Shown piece by piece: positions 20,508-60,230 of a stretch of DNA of 64,000 nt. The DNA lies in the NCBI RefSeq assembly GCF_045037415.1, contig NZ_CP173438.1; one strand, written 5' to 3'. A program made the translations under genes and the position numbers. Numbering within the stretch: the first letter of the stretch is position 1; each line of letters begins with the position of its first letter. The DNA is from Escherichia coli (lineage in GTDB: Bacteria; Pseudomonadota; Gammaproteobacteria; Enterobacterales; Enterobacteriaceae). The notes under the pieces are model-generated. The model had not been told where the DNA came from and searched no databases. It was given only the letters and a program-made list of their open reading frames with translations.

Positions 20508-21644
20508 TTACGAAAGCCCGCTCCCCGCAAGGACTGACGCGAGATAGTTTCTGTCCATGGCTGCTTTTCGCATCTTACGTCTTAACCCTGCCTTGAATAC
20601 CTTATCATTCGTTAAAATATTAATAGCGATGTGCCGTATCCCTGAAAATAATTCTGCGGCGTTTCCTCTTCTTATTTTGCAGTCGTCTTCATTCATTACC
20701 ACGTCCAGACGCCAGTGCAGCTTATTCTCCACGTGCCAGTGGTTTCGGATTGCTGTGGCGAACTTCTCTGCGGTTAAATCAGCAGAACTGATATAATATC
20801 TGACCGTCATTTCTGGCTCTTTCTTTTGTTCTGCTATTATGGACCGAAAGGAGACTGCCACGCATAATTTCTTCAGTCCTTTCCATTCGAACGTGAAATC
20901 AATAAGTTCATCAGGGACATCGCAAACAATATGAAGACGGATTTCTTCTCTGCCGTGACTCTTTTCACTAATGGCGTAACTGTCATGTTCTGGATTATTT
21001 AATTCTTTCAGTGGAAATTTTTCCTCAAAGGCTTTATTAAGCCGCCCCTGATTTCCTTTTACAGCGAATAAATAATCACCGCCCTGTTTTTGTATCTTCT
21101 CTGCAATATCTTTCTGGCAACCCATCGCATCAGTTGTGATGATTTTTCCTTTAATATCCAGCATGTTAAGAAGTTCAGGGATAGGTGTAATTTCATTGGA
21201 TTTCTCATCCGTCCTGATCTGTCCGATGACCAGACTGTGCATTGTTGAGAACGCACTAATGACATGAATCGCTCCCTTGCGGCGACTCTTGTCATAAGAA
21301 TGCCGGAGTGTTTTTCCATCAATTGCGATGACGTCTTTATCATCTGAAGAATGGCAGTCACGCATCCAGTTAATAAAGCACTCGTGAAATTTTGCAGGAC
21401 TGATACAGGATACAACTCTGGCAATGGTATCGTGAACAGGAATACCATTATCAAAATCACCATATTGCTTCAAAAAATCGAGATGTGTTTCCCCAAAATC
21501 CTCTATATCTTCCCAGCCTTCTGCACCCGAAATAACGGCACAAATAGTCAACAGTAGAATATCCGATAATTTATGTTCCACTTTCCAGGCTTGTCTGTAA
21601 TCGGGGATAATAGAAATATGTTCCATCAATTTTTTAAGTTCCAT
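20508..21644 (-). mobile_element. H-repeat-associated protein / ISAs1-family transposase gene (378 aa), AT-rich; element ends not defined
   Basis: ORF 20508..21644; [52 protein letters not shown]... recognised as the YdcC/YhhI/YbfD H-rpt protein family. Confidence 0.82.
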
Positions 21645-23989: not shown

Positions 23990-24067
23990 CAGACTACTGA
24001 CGAAGGTGCCGGATGCGGCGTGATAAAAGTCAGGCAATTCTTTCCGTTTTCACCCTCGCCATATCTA

Positions 24068-25129
24068 TTACAGCGCAATACGAATCACATCGTCCGGCTG
24101 GGTAGCTTCCTGCTGTTTAGTGGATTTTTGTTTCACACTGACATACAGCGTTTTGCCATCGGCAGACAGCGCCAGACTGTTCGGATGAGTCGGCGTATCG
24201 AACGTTTTCACCACTTTATAGCTTTTCGCGTCAATCACACTGACTTTACCTGCCTGACGATGCGTCACGTAGGCTTCATTACGCGCTGGGTTAAACAGCA
24301 CAGCCAGTGATTCCGGTGCCGCAACCTTCGCCAGAATATTGCCATTACGGGTATCGACCACTAACACTTCTGCCGCTTTAGAATCGGTGATAAATGCACG
24401 CTGATTGGTGGTATCAAGGCTGATGTTGATAAAGAAGTGCTCTTTGCCGTCATCCAGCAGCTTTTTACGGCTGAGGATTTTATTGTCGGTGGTGTCGATG
24501 GTAATCAATTCGCCGTCAGCGTTAGTGGTGTAAAGACGTTTGCCTTTGCTATCCAGCGCCAGACCGGTACTCATTTTACCGGTGTTCTGGATGGCGGTTT
24601 TCAGTTTGATATTCTCGCCATCAACGACCCAAATCACGCTCTCTTTACCAATACCACTGATGTAAACGGTGTTCGTGGTATCGTCAGCTACCAGCTCACG
24701 TGGTTGCAACGGGCGTACCTCTTCCGTGCGCTTACGATCATCCAGCACCAGACGTCCTTTCACTTCGCCCGTTTTGGCATCTATCGCCGTGACCGCACTA
24801 TTTACGGTGTTACCAAACCACAACGTCTGAGTCGTGTTATTGATGGTGGCACCAAACGGCTTGAGATCGTTATGGATCGCCTGCGTCACTTCCAGAGTAA
24901 CCGGATCAAGACGATAAACCACGCCGCCTTTATCCAGTTTGCGGCTTTGCGAAGTGGCAATCCACAGCGCGTTTTCTTGCTGGCTATAAGCCATTTCGTA
25001 GGCACCTTTACCTACCGCTTTACGCAGCATTTCTTCTGCGGCCTGCGTACTGAATGATGAAGCAACGAGCAATGAACCTAACAGTAATGAACCACGCAGG
25101 CGCGATGAAAACAGATGACGTAAATGCAT
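24068..25129 (-). CDS. yncE: Secreted beta-propeller protein YncE (353 aa)
   Basis: ORF 24068..25129; N-terminal signal peptide; recognised as YncE. Confidence 0.88.
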   Translation of the reverse strand: MHLRHLFSSRLRGSLLLGSLLVASSFSTQAAEEMLRKAVGKGAYEMAYSQQENALWIATSQSRKLDKGGVVYRLDPVTLEVTQAIHNDLKPFGATINNTTQTLWFGNTVNSAVTAIDAKTGEVKGRLVLDDRKRTEEVRPLQPRELVADDTTNTVYISGIGKESVIWVVDGENIKLKTAIQNTGKMSTGLALDSKGKRLYTTNADGELITIDTTDNKILSRKKLLDDGKEHFFINISLDTTNQRAFITDSKAAEVLVVDTRNGNILAKVAAPESLAVLFNPARNEAYVTHRQAGKVSVIDAKSYKVVKTFDTPTHPNSLALSADGKTLYVSVKQKSTKQQEATQPDDVIRIAL

Positions 25130-25213
25130 GACGACTCCCTTTGATGAACCGATATTTTTGCTGCTTCACAATGCTTCGCTAAGCGTAATCATCGTTACGC
25201 CCTTGTTATAAAT

Positions 25214-25232
25214 GGGAATGGTAATCATTATT
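25214..25232. promoter_or_regulatory. Fur-box-like site in the yncE / yncD divergent promoter region
   Basis: gggaatggtaatcattatt matches 15 of 19 positions of GATAATGATAATCATTATC (core AATGGTAATCATTAT has one mismatch). Confidence 0.5.
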
Positions 25233-25370
25233 TTCTCAAATGTGGAGCATTTCTTACCGTTATGACTACAATTTTCTCAATTACTTAACGTATTGTGCCG
25301 TTTTGTTTTCCATAAATTTACAATTTTATTACCATGACGGTGTTTTCCCATTCTTAACCTGGCTTTTTTC

Positions 25371-27473
25371 ATGAAGATTTTTTCCGTCCGACAGACCGTT
25401 TTGCCCGCACTGCTTGTCCTTTCCCCCGTTGTTTTTGCCGCTGATGAACAGACCATGATTGTCAGTGCCGCACCGCAGGTGGTTTCAGAACTGGATACCC
25501 CAGCAGCCGTGAGCGTGGTGGATGGCGAGGAGATGCGCCTGGCAACACCGCGCATTAACTTGTCTGAATCACTGACCGGAGTGCCTGGTTTACAGGTACA
25601 AAACCGACAGAACTATGCGCAAGATTTACAGCTGTCGATTCGCGGATTTGGCTCCCGCTCCACTTACGGAATTCGCGGTATTCGCCTGTATGTGGACGGT
25701 ATTCCCGCTACCATGCCCGACGGACAAGGGCAGACATCTAACATCGATTTAAGCAGTGTGCAAAATGTGGAAGTGCTGCGTGGCCCCTTCTCTGCTCTGT
25801 ATGGCAACGCGTCTGGCGGTGTAATGAATGTCACCACCCAGACCGGACAACAGCCACCAACCATTGAAGCCAGTAGTTACTACGGCAGTTTTGGCAGCTG
25901 GCGCTATGGGCTGAAAGCAACGGGCGCAACGGGCGACGGCACACAACCCGGCGATGTCGATTACACCGTCGCAACCACACGTTTTACGACCCACGGCTAT
26001 CGTGACCATAGTGGCGCACAGAAAAATTTAGCCAATGCCAAACTGGGCGTACGCATTGATGACGCCAGCAAATTAAGCCTGATTTTCAATAGTGTGGATA
26101 TCAAAGCAGATGACCCAGGTGGGCTAACCGAAGCAGAATGGAAGGCGAATCCACAACAAGCGCCTCGTGCAGAACAGTACGACATGCGAAAAACCATCAA
26201 GCAAACTCAGGCTGGGTTGCGCTATGAGCGTAGCCTGAGCGCACAAGATGATATGAGTGTGATGATGTATGCCGGAGAGCGAGAAACGACCCAGTACCAG
26301 TCAATCCCCATGGCCCCGCAACTTAACCCGTCACATGCGGGCGGCGTGATTACCCTGCAACGCCATTACCAGGGGATAGACAGCCGCTGGACACACCGTG
26401 GTGAACTGGGCGTTCCAGTCACGTTCACAACCGGCCTGAACTACGAAAACATGAGTGAAAACCGCAAGGGTTACAATAACTTCCGCCTGAATCGCGGCGT
26501 GCCGGAATACGGGCAAAAAGGTGAGTTGCGCCGCGACGAACGCAATTTGATGTGGAACGTCGATCCCTATTTACAAACCCAGTGGCAACTGACCGACAAA
26601 CTTTCGCTGGATGCTGGCGTGCGCTACAGCTCCGTGTGGTTTGATTCCAACGATCATTACGTTACTCCGGGTAACGGCGATGACAGCGGTGATGCCAGTT
26701 ATCACAAATGGCTACCTGCCGGATCGTTAAAATATGCAATGACCGATGCCTGGAATGTCTATCTGGCAGCCGGGCGCGGTTTTGAAACGCCGACGATTAA
26801 TGAACTGTCTTATCGCGCTGATGGACAAAGCGGTATGAACTTTGGTTTAAAACCCTCCACCAACGATACAATTGAGATCGGCAGTAAAACGCGTATTGGT
26901 GATGGACTGCTTAGTCTCGCATTGTTCCAGACCGACACCGATGATGAAATTGTTGTCGATAGCAGTAGCGGTGGGCGTACGACTTACAAAAATGCCGGAA
27001 AGACCCGTCGTCAAGGCGCTGAACTGGCATGGGATCAACGTTTCGCGGGAGATTTTCGCGTAAAAGCGTCCTGGACCTGGCTTGATGCGACCTATCGCAG
27101 CAATGTCTGCAATGAACAGGATTGTAACGGTAACCGGATGCCAGGGATCGCCCGTAATATGGGCTTTGCGTCGATAGGTTATATACCGGAAGATGGTTGG
27201 TATGCAGGCACGGAAGCGCGTTATATGGGCGATATTATGGCAGATGATGAAAATACGGCCAAAGCGCCTTCTTATACACTCGTCGGCTTATTCACCGGGT
27301 ATAAATACAATTACCACAATTTAACCGTGGATTTATTTGGTCGTGTCGATAATTTATTCGATAAAGAATACGTTGGTTCTGTCATTGTCAATGAGTCAAA
27401 CGGGCGATATTACGAACCTGCGCCCGGACGAAATTATGGTGTCGGCATAAATATTGCGTGGCGATTTGAGTAA
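25371..27473 (+). CDS. yncD: TonB-dependent outer membrane receptor (700 aa)
   Basis: ORF 25371..27473; signal peptide, TonB-box-like N-terminus, C-terminal ...INIAWRFE ending in aromatic residue. Confidence 0.88.
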   Translation: MKIFSVRQTVLPALLVLSPVVFAADEQTMIVSAAPQVVSELDTPAAVSVVDGEEMRLATPRINLSESLTGVPGLQVQNRQNYAQDLQLSIRGFGSRSTYGIRGIRLYVDGIPATMPDGQGQTSNIDLSSVQNVEVLRGPFSALYGNASGGVMNVTTQTGQQPPTIEASSYYGSFGSWRYGLKATGATGDGTQPGDVDYTVATTRFTTHGYRDHSGAQKNLANAKLGVRIDDASKLSLIFNSVDIKADDPGGLTEAEWKANPQQAPRAEQYDMRKTIKQTQAGLRYERSLSAQDDMSVMMYAGERETTQYQSIPMAPQLNPSHAGGVITLQRHYQGIDSRWTHRGELGVPVTFTTGLNYENMSENRKGYNNFRLNRGVPEYGQKGELRRDERNLMWNVDPYLQTQWQLTDKLSLDAGVRYSSVWFDSNDHYVTPGNGDDSGDASYHKWLPAGSLKYAMTDAWNVYLAAGRGFETPTINELSYRADGQSGMNFGLKPSTNDTIEIGSKTRIGDGLLSLALFQTDTDDEIVVDSSSGGRTTYKNAGKTRRQGAELAWDQRFAGDFRVKASWTWLDATYRSNVCNEQDCNGNRMPGIARNMGFASIGYIPEDGWYAGTEARYMGDIMADDENTAKAPSYTLVGLFTGYKYNYHNLTVDLFGRVDNLFDKEYVGSVIVNESNGRYYEPAPGRNYGVGINIAWRFE

Positions 27474-27483
27474 TTATCTTTAA

Positions 27484-27515
27484 GCCCGGTATTTGCCGGG
27501 CGTATTTTATTTATC
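27484..27515 (+). terminator. Intrinsic terminator after yncD
   Basis: stem gcccgg/ccgggc with 6-nt loop followed by gtattttatttatc. Confidence 0.6.
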
Positions 27516-27747
27516 GGCTGTATTGCTGGCACAACATAGCAACGTTTTTTTGCATAGTGAGGTTTTCGACAGCCAGAGCAACTGCCATTAACTCCAGTTC
27601 GTAGCGGATCCGATTGATTTCATTTAATTGACGTTTTCCCACTTCCGGAACTGTAAATGCTTGCGCTGGTGCGACAAAGAGCGCATTTACCGAAACCAGA
27701 CGTAAGGAACCGGCGCGCCATGCGGACGCGAGGACAGAACCCAACAT
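27511..27747 (-). pseudogene. Short ORF (78 aa), possible remnant of a transcriptional regulator (mcbR-like) gene
   Basis: ORF 27511..27747 with in-frame stop two codons upstream of its start; lies where K-12 (from memory) has curA and mcbR between yncA and yncD; assignment is inference. Confidence 0.3.
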
Positions 27748-27953
27748 CGGTTACGCTGCGTTTGTTGCCCCATAATGCTCTCCTGTGCTTTTGGCATGAA
27801 TCCATCAATAGTAGCAGGCTCACAGGATTGGTTTTGTTTGCAGCCGTCACATCCCCTCTGCAACACGCAATAATTTCATAGAGGAATCCGTTGCTTCGGG
27901 CTGTTTTCGATAGTATTGATAACATCATCATCATTATTTTATCGAGGCCAGAC

Positions 27954-43047: not shown

Positions 43048-44036
43048 TCTTTGTCCTCTGCTTTCATTAAAACGGCGCGCTCGGTTCTGACTAACAATTT
43101 TCCCTGCATCAGAAGCGCAAAAGTACGGATGAGCAGTATTGCAATAATAAAATTGGTAAAGATAAACAGCGGCACCGCCAGCGTATGGAAAAATCCATTA
43201 TCGCTGCCACTCCCCAGATGCAAACCGGTGGTTGCCAGTGCAGATACGCCGAACGAGAAACTCCAGAATGAAGCATTAAATGGCTGGGAGAGATACCATG
43301 GCATCAGACATAGCATAAACAGCAGTTGCAGCAGTCCATAACCGAAAAGCATTTTCGCCAGCGTGTCACCCTCGCCGCCGTTGACGCTCAGCCAGGCACT
43401 ACAGGCCACCAGCGCAGGAGCGAGCTGAATGCCGAGTGATGTCCTCAGTGCCGTGGGTAATTCTCCCGAACTGCGCAGACGCTGCAAGATCACCGGTTCC
43501 AGGCTTAGCCATGAGAAAACGCCTGCGCCTAAAAACACCAGACCGGCGTCGGTGTAGCCCAACGCACCACAGGCCATTGCGCTGATAAAGTTGTTGGCAA
43601 CTGTCGGCAGATACAGTCCAGGCGTGGTAGCTTCTTCAGGGTGAGATCCACGCCATAATCCCGCAGTTTGCCAGGCGGCATAAGCCAACTGAACCACGAC
43701 ACCAAAACTGAACAGGCACACCGCCAGTGGGCGAAACCACGGAACAAAACCAATCGCCACCAGCATCGTCGTTGCCGGAAACAAACTCACAAAACTGCTC
43801 AGCACTGGATGGCGCACTTCTGCCAGCACGCTATGCGGAAAGCGTATGAGTCGGGTAATAAATGCGCCAGTCAATAATCCCCAGATGATCATCGCCAGAA
43901 TCACCAGCCCATCCCCCAACCAGTGGCTGACCTGCCAAACCTGGCTGGCATAGCGCCAGGCAAATCCCATCCCTATCGTCCCCAACACAATACCAAAGTA
44001 GCCTGCCGGCAAATTGAGCACTTTATCGTTCTGCAT
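43044..44036 (-). CDS. tehA: Tellurite resistance / dicarboxylate transporter family membrane protein (330 aa)
   Basis: ORF 43044..44144 trimmed to [30 protein letters not shown]; stop overlaps tehB start. Confidence 0.88.
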
Positions 44037-59300: not shown

Positions 59301-60230
59301 CAGCGCATCGGCGGTATCGCGAATTTCTCGCTCGCCGCTCATAAAGATCAGAATGTCGCCAGGGCTTTCCTGGCTCAGTTCGTCTACGGCGTCAAAAATC
59401 GCCTGCAACTGATCGCGCTCGGTATCATCGGCTTCTTCAACAATCGGGCGATAGCGCACTTCCACCGGATAGGTCCGACCGGAGACTTCGATAATCGGCG
59501 CATTATTAAAGTGGCGCGAAAAGCGTTCCGGGTCGATAGTCGCGGAAGTGATAATGATTTTTAGGTCAGGACGCCGCGGCAGCAACTCTTTCAAATAGCC
59601 GAGCAGAAAATCGATATTCAGGCTGCGTTCGTGCGCTTCGTCAATAATGATGGTGTCGTACTGCATCAGCAGGCGGTCTTGCTGGATCTCCGCCAGCAGG
59701 ATACCGTCGGTCATCAGCTTGACCATCGTGTTATCACTGACGTGATCGCTGAAACGCACTTTGTAACCGATGCAACCGCCCGGCTCCGTTTTTAGCTCTT
59801 CCGCAATACGGTTCGCCACCGTTCGCGCCGCCAGCCGACGCGGCTGGGTATGGCCGATCAGCCCTTTAATCCCGCGCCCCAGCTCCATACAGATTTTCGG
59901 TAGCTGAGTCGTTTTACCGGAACCCGTTTCCCCGGCGACGATCACCACCTGGTGGTCACGAATCGCTTCGAGAATGTCCTGCTTTTTCTGACTAACCGGC
60001 AAATTGTCCGGGTAAGTAATCTCCGGTCGTGCCGCTTCACGCAGCAGGACTTTCCCTGCCGCATGGTCAATCTCTTTCGCCATCTCCTGGAAAATGGCCT
60101 GTTGTGCATCAGGATTTTTAACCTTCTTCACACCGTGCAGACGGCGAGAAAAACGCAATCTGTCACGCAGCATCAACGAATCCAGCCGCTGCTGCAAGGC
60201 AGTAAAGGTCAATTTTTGTTGTTCTGTCAT
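56328..60230 (-). CDS. hrpA: ATP-dependent RNA helicase HrpA, DEAH-box (1300 aa)
   Basis: ORF 56328..60230; Walker A GETGSGKTTQ, DEAH box IIDEAHERS. Confidence 0.93.
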   Translation of the reverse strand: MTEQQKLTFTALQQRLDSLMLRDRLRFSRRLHGVKKVKNPDAQQAIFQEMAKEIDHAAGKVLLREAARPEITYPDNLPVSQKKQDILEAIRDHQVVIVAGETGSGKTTQLPKICMELGRGIKGLIGHTQPRRLAARTVANRIAEELKTEPGGCIGYKVRFSDHVSDNTMVKLMTDGILLAEIQQDRLLMQYDTIIIDEAHERSLNIDFLLGYLKELLPRRPDLKIIITSATIDPERFSRHFNNAPIIEVSGRTYPVEVRYRPIVEEADDTERDQLQAIFDAVDELSQESPGDILIFMSGEREIRDTADALNKLNLRHTEILPLYARLSNSEQNRVFQSHSGRRIVLATNVAETSLTVPGIKYVIDPGTARISRYSYRTKVQRLPIEPISQASANQRKGRCGRVSEGICIRLYSEDDFLSRPEFTDPEILRTNLASVILQMTALGLGDIAAFPFVEAPDKRNIQDGVRLLEELGAITTDEQQSAYKLTPLGRQLSQLPVDPRLARMVLEAQKHGCVREAMIITSALSIQDPRERPMDKQQAADEKHRRFHDKESDFLAFVNLWNYLGEQQKALSSNAFRRLCRTDYLNYLRVREWQDIYTQLRQVVKELGIPVNSEPADYREIHIALLTGLLSHIGMKDADKQEYTGARNARFSIFPGSGLFKKPPKWVMVAELVETSRLWGRIAARIDPEWVEPVAQHLIKRTYSEPHWERAQGAVMATEKVTVYGLPIVAARKVNYSQIDPALCRELFIRHALVEGDWQTRHAFFRENLKLRAEVEELEHKTRRRDILVDDETLFEFYDQRISHDVISARHFDSWWKKVSRETPDLLNFEKSMLIKEGAEKISKLDYPNFWHQGNLKLRLSYQFEPGADADGVTVHIPLPLLNQVEESGFEWQIPGLRRELIIALIKSLPKPVRRNFVPAPNYAEAFLGRVTPLELPLLDSLERELRRMTGVTVDREDWHWDQVPDHLKITFRVVDDKNKKLKEGRSLQDLKDALKGKVQETLSAVADDGIEQSGLHIWSFGQLPESYEQKRGNYKVKAWPALVDERDSVAIKLFDNPLEQKQAMWNGLRRLLLLNIPSPIKYLHEKLPNKAKLGLYFNPYGKVLELIDDCISCGVDQLIDANGGPVWTEEGFAALHEKVRAELNDTVVDIAKQVEQILTAVFNINKRLKGRVDMTMALGLSDIKAQMGGLVYRGFVTGNGFKRLGDTLRYLQAIEKRLEKLAVDPHRDRAQMLKVENVQQAWQQWINKLPPARREDEDVKEVRWMIEELRVSYFAQQLGTPYPISDKRILQAMEQISG

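Follow-up and report, generated by a model that had tools for sequence, protein, structure and literature searches.

Classical Fur boxes of Escherichia coli, such as those of fecI, fhuA, cirA, ryhB and sufA, have a 19-bp motif in common with the site upstream of yncE that is the subject of this report; AATGATAACCATTCTCATA (fecI) and TATAATAATCATTCTCGTT (fhuA) are two of the sites that the matrix described below finds in these promoters. In three cases, fepA-fes, fepD-entS and fepB-entC, the Fur box sits in a short divergent intergenic region where one of the two gene products is a TonB-dependent receptor or part of a transport system, and both divergent units of these pairs are listed as Fur targets with ChIP-exo peaks. 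Two to four such peaks each have been mapped at fhuA, fepB-entC and cirA, and cirA combines repression by Fur with activation by RyhB.

Repression of yncE by Fur is already known: citations of it go back to 2003, and ChIP-exo has mapped the site. For this repression PMC4666370 refers to McHugh et al. 2003, and other studies reported a Fur ChIP signal upstream of yncE (PMC4676285), placed yncE among Fur ChIP targets or in the Fur regulon (PMC4676285, PMC7157518), called a Fur box upstream of the gene with a PRODORIC matrix (PMC4145685) and detected overproduction of YncE protein in a fur mutant by Western blot (PMC5120174). Iron limitation has been published to induce yncE 16-fold. The Fur information-theory model of Chen et al. 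2007 leaves yncE unmentioned and, outside McHugh et al. 2003 and Baba-Dikwa et al. 2008, our literature search returned no footprint, gel-shift or operator point mutants for the site.

Here, we describe the anatomy of the region in one E. coli genome, beginning from a preliminary description that had been made from the letters alone and that proposed a Fur-box-like operator between yncE and its divergent neighbour. Throughout, the window denotes the whole 64-kb stretch of DNA that was analysed.

Locus and promoters

The part of the window spanning 24000-27500 is 100% identical to several clinical E. coli isolates and 95-99% identical to nearly all of 5,426 complete genomes, whose annotations name the two genes yncE (YncE family protein) and pqqU (TonB-dependent receptor PqqU). 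The flagged interval, 25130..25370, is exactly the divergent intergenic region of 241 bp between yncE and pqqU (formerly yncD), and the preliminary description had thus correctly placed the site between the gene of a secreted beta-propeller protein and that of a TonB-dependent receptor (Table 1). The PQQ-import function of PqqU has been described elsewhere (Hantke & Friz preprint; PMC12124388). The intergenic region has an A+T content of 64%, and K-12 shows the same gene arrangement with an identical 241-bp spacing.

Two stretches of the surrounding DNA depart from K-12. Downstream of pqqU, at about 27550..27773, the window has a mere pseudogene remnant of the GntR-family regulator gene mcbR and lacks curA, and an ISEc1-family transposase gene (20508..21644) stands between yddH and ansP.

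Transcription starts of both genes have been published for K-12 (Kim et al. 2012, supplementary table, PMC3415461). The yncE start lies at 1521251 (+) in NC_000913.2, with 489 reads and an 80-nt leader, and the sequence upstream of it is printed as ...TACCATTCCCATTTA and ...GCTCCACATTTGAGAAAATAATGATTACCATTCCCATTTA; the yncD start, supported by 11 reads, lies at 1521118 (-) and gives a leader of 29 nt. Because K-12 and the window have the same spacing, these starts map to 25209 (-) for yncE and to 25342 (+) for pqqU, 133 bp apart.

With the yncE start at 25209, the Fur operator covers positions -23 to -2 and contains the hexamer TACCAT, the sole plausible -10 element. The hexamer is conserved across genera, reading TACTAT or TATTAT in other genera, and the -35 block CTCCAC(A/T)TT is nearly invariant among the genera shown. 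Between the end of the -10 hexamer and the mapped start there are 8 nt, a distance at the upper limit of what is usual, and a simple promoter scan left the TCCACA/TACCAT pair uncalled (8/12 matches against a threshold of 9). Two alternative yncE promoters, one combining TTGAGA (25234..25239) as -35 with TATAAC (25205..25210) as -10 and the other using AATAAT as -10, were rejected because their spacings are 23 or 10 bp, their elements are not conserved and the start at 25209 fits only TCCACA-17-TACCAT. The core promoter of pqqU does not overlap the Fur operator and coincides in part with a conserved block at 25306..25325.

Table 1. Features of the yncE/pqqU region in window coordinates. Signed positions are relative to the yncE transcription start.
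Feature	Position	Strand	Description
yncE coding sequence	24068..25129	-	353 aa, secreted seven-bladed beta-propeller protein; from the open reading frame list; RefSeq "YncE family protein", 100% identity
Conserved 5'UTR block GAAGCAUUGUGAAGCAG	25161..25177	-	+33..+49; complementary to the RyhB core UGCUCACAUUGCUUC
Leader hairpin	25182..25201	-	7-bp hairpin, +9..+28 of the yncE mRNA; outside the Fur operator, inside the flagged interval, directly after the start site
yncE transcription start site	25209	-	Published start, re-mapped; 5'UTR of 80 nt
Fur operator	25211..25232	-	Union of the matrix register 25211..25229 and the classical 19-bp register 25214..25232; -23..-2
yncE -10 hexamer TACCAT	25218..25223	-	Within the Fur operator, -14..-9; predicted from spacing and conservation
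yncE -35 hexamer TCCACA	25241..25246	-	17 bp upstream of the -10, -37..-32; predicted assignment
Marbox-like 20-mer ACGGCACAATACGTTAAGTA	25282..25301	-	One mismatch to AYNGCACNNWNNRYYAAAYN
pqqU core promoter	25307..25342	+	-35 TTTCCA at 25307..25312, -10 TACCAT at 25330..25335 (predicted hexamers), start 25342; 5'UTR of 29 nt
pqqU (formerly yncD) coding sequence	25371..27473	+	700 aa, TonB-dependent PQQ importer, divergent from yncE

The Fur box by consensus and matrix

At 25214..25232 the window reads GGGAATGGTAATCATTATT, which agrees with the Fur consensus GATAATGATAATCATTATC at 15 of 19 positions (14 of 19 on the other strand). The match count given in the preliminary description is therefore right, as is its reading of the 15-bp core AATGGTAATCATTAT with a single mismatch, and no other position of the 64 kb reaches 15/19. 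Shuffling that preserves dinucleotides produced a match of this quality in 5 of 3000 versions of the AT-rich intergenic region and in 2 of 30 versions of the whole window; in view of the latter, the consensus count alone is suggestive, not decisive.

The operator also has the finer architecture expected of a 19-bp Fur box, namely two overlapping 7-1-7 motifs 6 bp apart. The motif TGATAATNATTATCA matches at 25219..25233 (3 of 14 positions mismatched) and again, at an offset of 6 bp, at 25213..25227 (4 of 14); only five positions in the window match it with at most three mismatches. Hexamers of the NAT(A/T)AT type within the operator are GAAAAT, AATAAT and AATGAT. The deviations of the E. coli yncE box from the consensus fall in its degenerate promoter-proximal half (CCATTCCC).

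A Fur matrix of width 19 was built by expectation-maximisation, with no consensus supplied and yncE excluded, from 17 K-12 intergenic regions upstream of well-known Fur targets (fepA-fes, fepD-entS, fepB-entC, fhuA, fiu, fhuE, tonB, cirA, exbB, fecI, feoA, ryhB, sufA, fhuF, yddA, bfd and nrdH). The motif that emerged was AATGATAATCATTTTCATT, which is the classical Fur box with a shift of 3 bp. The top match of this matrix in the whole window is 25211..25229 (-), which reads AATGATTACCATTCCCATT on the yncE strand and scores 20.0 bits, against 13.5 bits for the runner-up. As this register starts 3 bp to the left of the classical one, the operator is best given as 25211..25232. Comparison with genomic background, the check that had been put forward together with the initial proposal, was passed: none of the 205,334 non-training control positions in the K-12 DNA used reached 20.0 bits, the best of them scoring 16.35 bits. 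Ranked against the leave-one-out scores of the 17 true Fur promoters (8.7-26.2 bits), the yncE site comes 7th of 18. The score was equalled in 1 of 5000 intergenic shuffles and in 2 of 100 dinucleotide-shuffled versions of the whole window, and given these last two the sequence by itself is, once more, suggestive rather than conclusive.

The next-best matrix matches, at 43146..43164 and 59547..59565 (- strand; 13.5 and 12.8 bits), exceed only a single held-out true promoter and lie inside the shuffle range. An exact 10-bp direct repeat, ATTTTCTCAA, occurs at 25230..25239, where it abuts the Fur box, and 41 bp away at 25271..25280; the second copy belongs to a stretch without conservation between genera, and the repeat is probably a chance occurrence in AT-rich DNA.

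Fur occupancy and derepression of yncE

Published ChIP-exo data place Fur on this very site. Upstream of yncE, Gao et al. 2023 (PMC10164565, Dataset 2) list one Fur peak at 1524928..1524940 in W3110 and one at 1521238..1521250 in MG1655, both seen exclusively in iron-replete cells. Relative to the yncE start in W3110 (1525021) and the yncE ATG in MG1655 (1521331), both peaks fall 81-93 bp ahead of the ATG, at 25210..25222 of the window, and the MG1655 peak stops one base short of the mapped transcription start. In the MG1655 sheet of Dataset 2 the gene labels are shifted by one row against the coordinates from peak P37 on, such that the peak at the tonB promoter carries the label acnA and the one between yncD and yncE the label adhP; given this displacement, we used the peak coordinates and not the labels.

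Loss of Fur has the corresponding effect on expression. Upon deletion of fur, yncE rises by a log2 fold change of 3.1 in MG1655 and 8.1 in W3110, with six other strains giving values of 3.6-5.5 (Gao et al. 2023, PMC10164565). In these published RNA-Seq data yncE is derepressed 8- to 280-fold in eight of nine strains.

On every sequence-level and published in vivo count, the yncE site passes as a member of the E. coli Fur-box family. Taken with the earlier literature, we regard it as almost certainly the already documented Fur operator that represses yncE, of the classical, promoter-occlusion type.

The box travels with yncE

In a scan of one genome per species we collected 79 YncE-encoding loci, of which about 74 had enough upstream sequence to score. 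The best matrix match in all of these roughly 74 loci is the same element, AATGATTAC[C/T]ATTC[C/T/G]CAT[T/C], with scores of 12-27 bits, and with three exceptions its distance from the yncE ATG is 76-104 bp. The three exceptional loci, one of which is from Pseudescherichia, have shortened leaders with the box at 37-59 bp. Genera that carry the box include Escherichia, Citrobacter, Salmonella, Enterobacter, Klebsiella, Raoultella, Kluyvera, Lelliottia and others; most genera other than Escherichia have a stronger box than E. coli (24-27 bits versus 20).

Column by column, across 56 distinct intergenic regions, the box is the most conserved non-coding block, with at least 95% conservation at 25213..25230. 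It is flanked by the conserved -35 block CTCCACATT, and the sequence in between diverges. Within the species, the 60 bp comprising promoter and operator show an identity of 95% or more in 5410 out of the 5426 complete E. coli genomes.

A complete pqqU is missing beside yncE in 16 loci, in some of them because the contig ends and in several Citrobacter loci (e.g. L010 and L014) with other open reading frames in its place. In all 16 the position of the box relative to yncE is kept, indicating that the element travels with yncE and not with pqqU.

Does the box also control pqqU?

The preliminary description had left open whether iron would control one of the two genes or both. For yncE the proposal is supported throughout, by the matrix score, the overlap with the -10 element, ChIP-exo, the fur mutants and conservation; its extension to pqqU is weakly supported. 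A bidirectional operator would make pqqU iron- and Fur-responsive as well, either because Fur spreads over the AT-rich spacer or, indirectly, because strong divergent yncE transcription stimulates the weak pqqU promoter. The data of Gao et al. 2023 (PMC10164565) offer several points in its favour: deletion of fur raises yncD by a log2 fold change of 2.95 in W3110 (padj 2.7e-51; from about 4-5 to 32 normalised counts) and of 2.02 in EC042, a 4- to 8-fold rise in these two strains; the authors assign the W3110 intergenic peak to both transcription units; and MG1655 shows a second, weak Fur peak inside pqqU at 1520944..1520980 (25480..25516 of the window, codons about 37-49), again in iron-replete cells only. 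This intragenic peak is absent from the earlier list of Seo et al.

Against these observations, yncD is unchanged in the MG1655 fur deletion (log2 0.12, not significant; PMC10164565), and both Grinter & Lithgow 2020 and Hantke & Friz 2022 describe yncD/pqqU as neither Fur-regulated nor iron-induced. The operator lies at -110 to -131 from the pqqU start at 25342 and hence cannot occlude the pqqU promoter. No Fur-matrix match above 7.5 bits was found near that promoter or beneath the intragenic peak, and the scan directly under 25480..25516 returned nothing above 3 bits. In the Citrobacter loci where other genes replace pqqU, moreover, the box has retained its distance from yncE. We therefore consider a bidirectional operator unlikely, and for the most part the box probably does not control pqqU.

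The derepression of yncD in the W3110 and EC042 fur deletions is at odds with the statement of the two transporter papers that the gene is not Fur-regulated. A conditional and probably indirect effect of Fur on pqqU in some strains or conditions, for example through coupling of the divergent promoters, might account for it, and this too we consider unlikely. If true, it would tie the scavenging of the PQQ cofactor to iron status, contrary to the current view of PqqU as Fur-independent.

Other regulators and chance resemblance

Another regulator, either MarA/SoxS/Rob or a metal sensor such as Zur, might be the primary one at the conserved element, with Fur in a secondary role. MarA does appear beside Fur as a regulator of yncE in a RegulonDB-derived table (PMC4145685), and the intergenic region contains a marbox-like sequence, a match quality (one mismatch) found at only three places in the 64-kb window. 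This sequence is a separate element, 50 bp from the Fur box. The matrix that found the box had been trained on Fur promoters alone. To our knowledge, the palindromic Zur box consensus bears no resemblance to the yncE site. Altogether, primary control by one of these regulators is very unlikely. The marbox-like site lies at -60 to -41 from the pqqU start and at -92 to -73 from the yncE start, and from these distances it may serve pqqU rather than, or besides, yncE.

The least probable reading, that an AT-rich yncE core promoter resembles a Fur box by chance and that iron regulation acts elsewhere or indirectly, can draw on the base composition, the whole-window shuffles and the lack of a strong second site alongside the first in E. 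coli (the register shifted by 6 bp scores just 5.2 bits), but it is already largely refuted by ChIP-exo peaks of two strains exactly on the site, by a mid-range score among true Fur promoters with no further match above 7.5 bits in the intergenic region, and by the conservation of the 19-mer as the foremost non-coding block between genera amid divergent flanks.

A conserved leader hairpin and a candidate RyhB site

Two further elements lie in the 5'UTR of yncE, downstream of the operator. The first is the leader hairpin, for which RNAalifold on 24 enterobacterial sequences found compensatory changes at all seven pairs. Here, 92.3% of cells are paired, compared with 34-49% in slid controls, and the covariation score was reached by none of 500 shuffles. 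A search of Rfam with 24900..25600 returned no family match at E-values up to 1. The hairpin may be a 5' stabilising stem-loop. A terminator-like call at 25183..25200 (+) is the palindrome of this same hairpin read on the opposite strand and no terminator. We also rejected a short upstream open reading frame starting at the ATG of the hairpin loop (ATGATTACGCTTAGCGAAGCATTGTGA), since this ATG is missing from E. whittamii and Salmonella.

The second element is the block GAAGCAUUGUGAAGCAG. Post-transcriptional activation of yncE by RyhB, roughly 3-fold, is published (PMC4666370 and other work), and CopraRNA gave the RyhB-yncE interaction a poor rank, 834th; the literature search found neither a pairing site for RyhB on yncE nor a mechanism of activation. 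Read by eye, GAAGCAUUGUGAAGCAG and the RyhB core UGCUCACAUUGCUUC form 14 base pairs in E. coli with one mismatch and one bulge, and two central nucleotides of the block differ among genera. The duplex energy with the RyhB core is only modestly better than that of shuffles (64/2000). On this complementarity, the block is a candidate for the RyhB pairing site of yncE.

Two other approaches to RyhB were set aside. RNAduplex applied to the whole RyhB molecule gave uninformative long duplexes that were equalled by 142 of 1000 shuffles. A single-sequence fold had suggested a structure hiding the start codon that RyhB might open; RNAalifold on the 24 sequences, which extended to +45, supports the 5' hairpin only.

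Discussion

The evidence can be assembled into a simple model of yncE control. When iron is plentiful, Fur-Fe2+ sits on 25211..25232, across the spacer and the predicted -10 element of the sigma-70 promoter of yncE, and would block RNA polymerase; promoter occlusion is the physical mechanism that we infer from this overlap. The two overlapping 7-1-7 half-operators would fit two Fur dimers. When iron becomes scarce, Fur departs and yncE is strongly transcribed, and RyhB, itself repressed by Fur, adds a smaller post-transcriptional boost of roughly 3-fold.

Reading the letters alone had thus recovered a true regulatory site and added no new biology. The practical value of the present analysis lies in laying out the region between yncE and pqqU precisely, with the operator, both promoters and their starts, the 5'UTR hairpin and the candidate RyhB site, and this layout accounts for control of yncE by the box and, in MG1655, for the independence of the PQQ importer from it. 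As YncE serves as an antigen for vaccines and diagnostics in E. coli and Salmonella, exact knowledge of how it is induced in host niches poor in iron is of some applied use.

Compared with the classical Fur boxes, nothing categorical sets the E. coli yncE box apart. Fur binds it in iron-replete cells, it overlaps a core promoter and its gene is derepressed in the absence of Fur; it is a single site of middling strength (20 bits), where fhuA, fepB-entC and cirA have several peaks. The yncE/pqqU region resembles the ent/fep pairs in its layout, with a Fur box in a short divergent spacer next to a TonB-dependent receptor gene, and differs from them in that the box lies over the yncE promoter only and that pqqU imports PQQ rather than iron and is Fur-independent in MG1655. 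No RyhB pairing on yncE has been mapped in the papers found, and the complementarity at +33 to +49 is a candidate for it. In the logic of its control the gene resembles cirA: like cirA, yncE is both repressed by Fur at its promoter and raised by RyhB, and iron starvation therefore acts on it twice, in the same direction.
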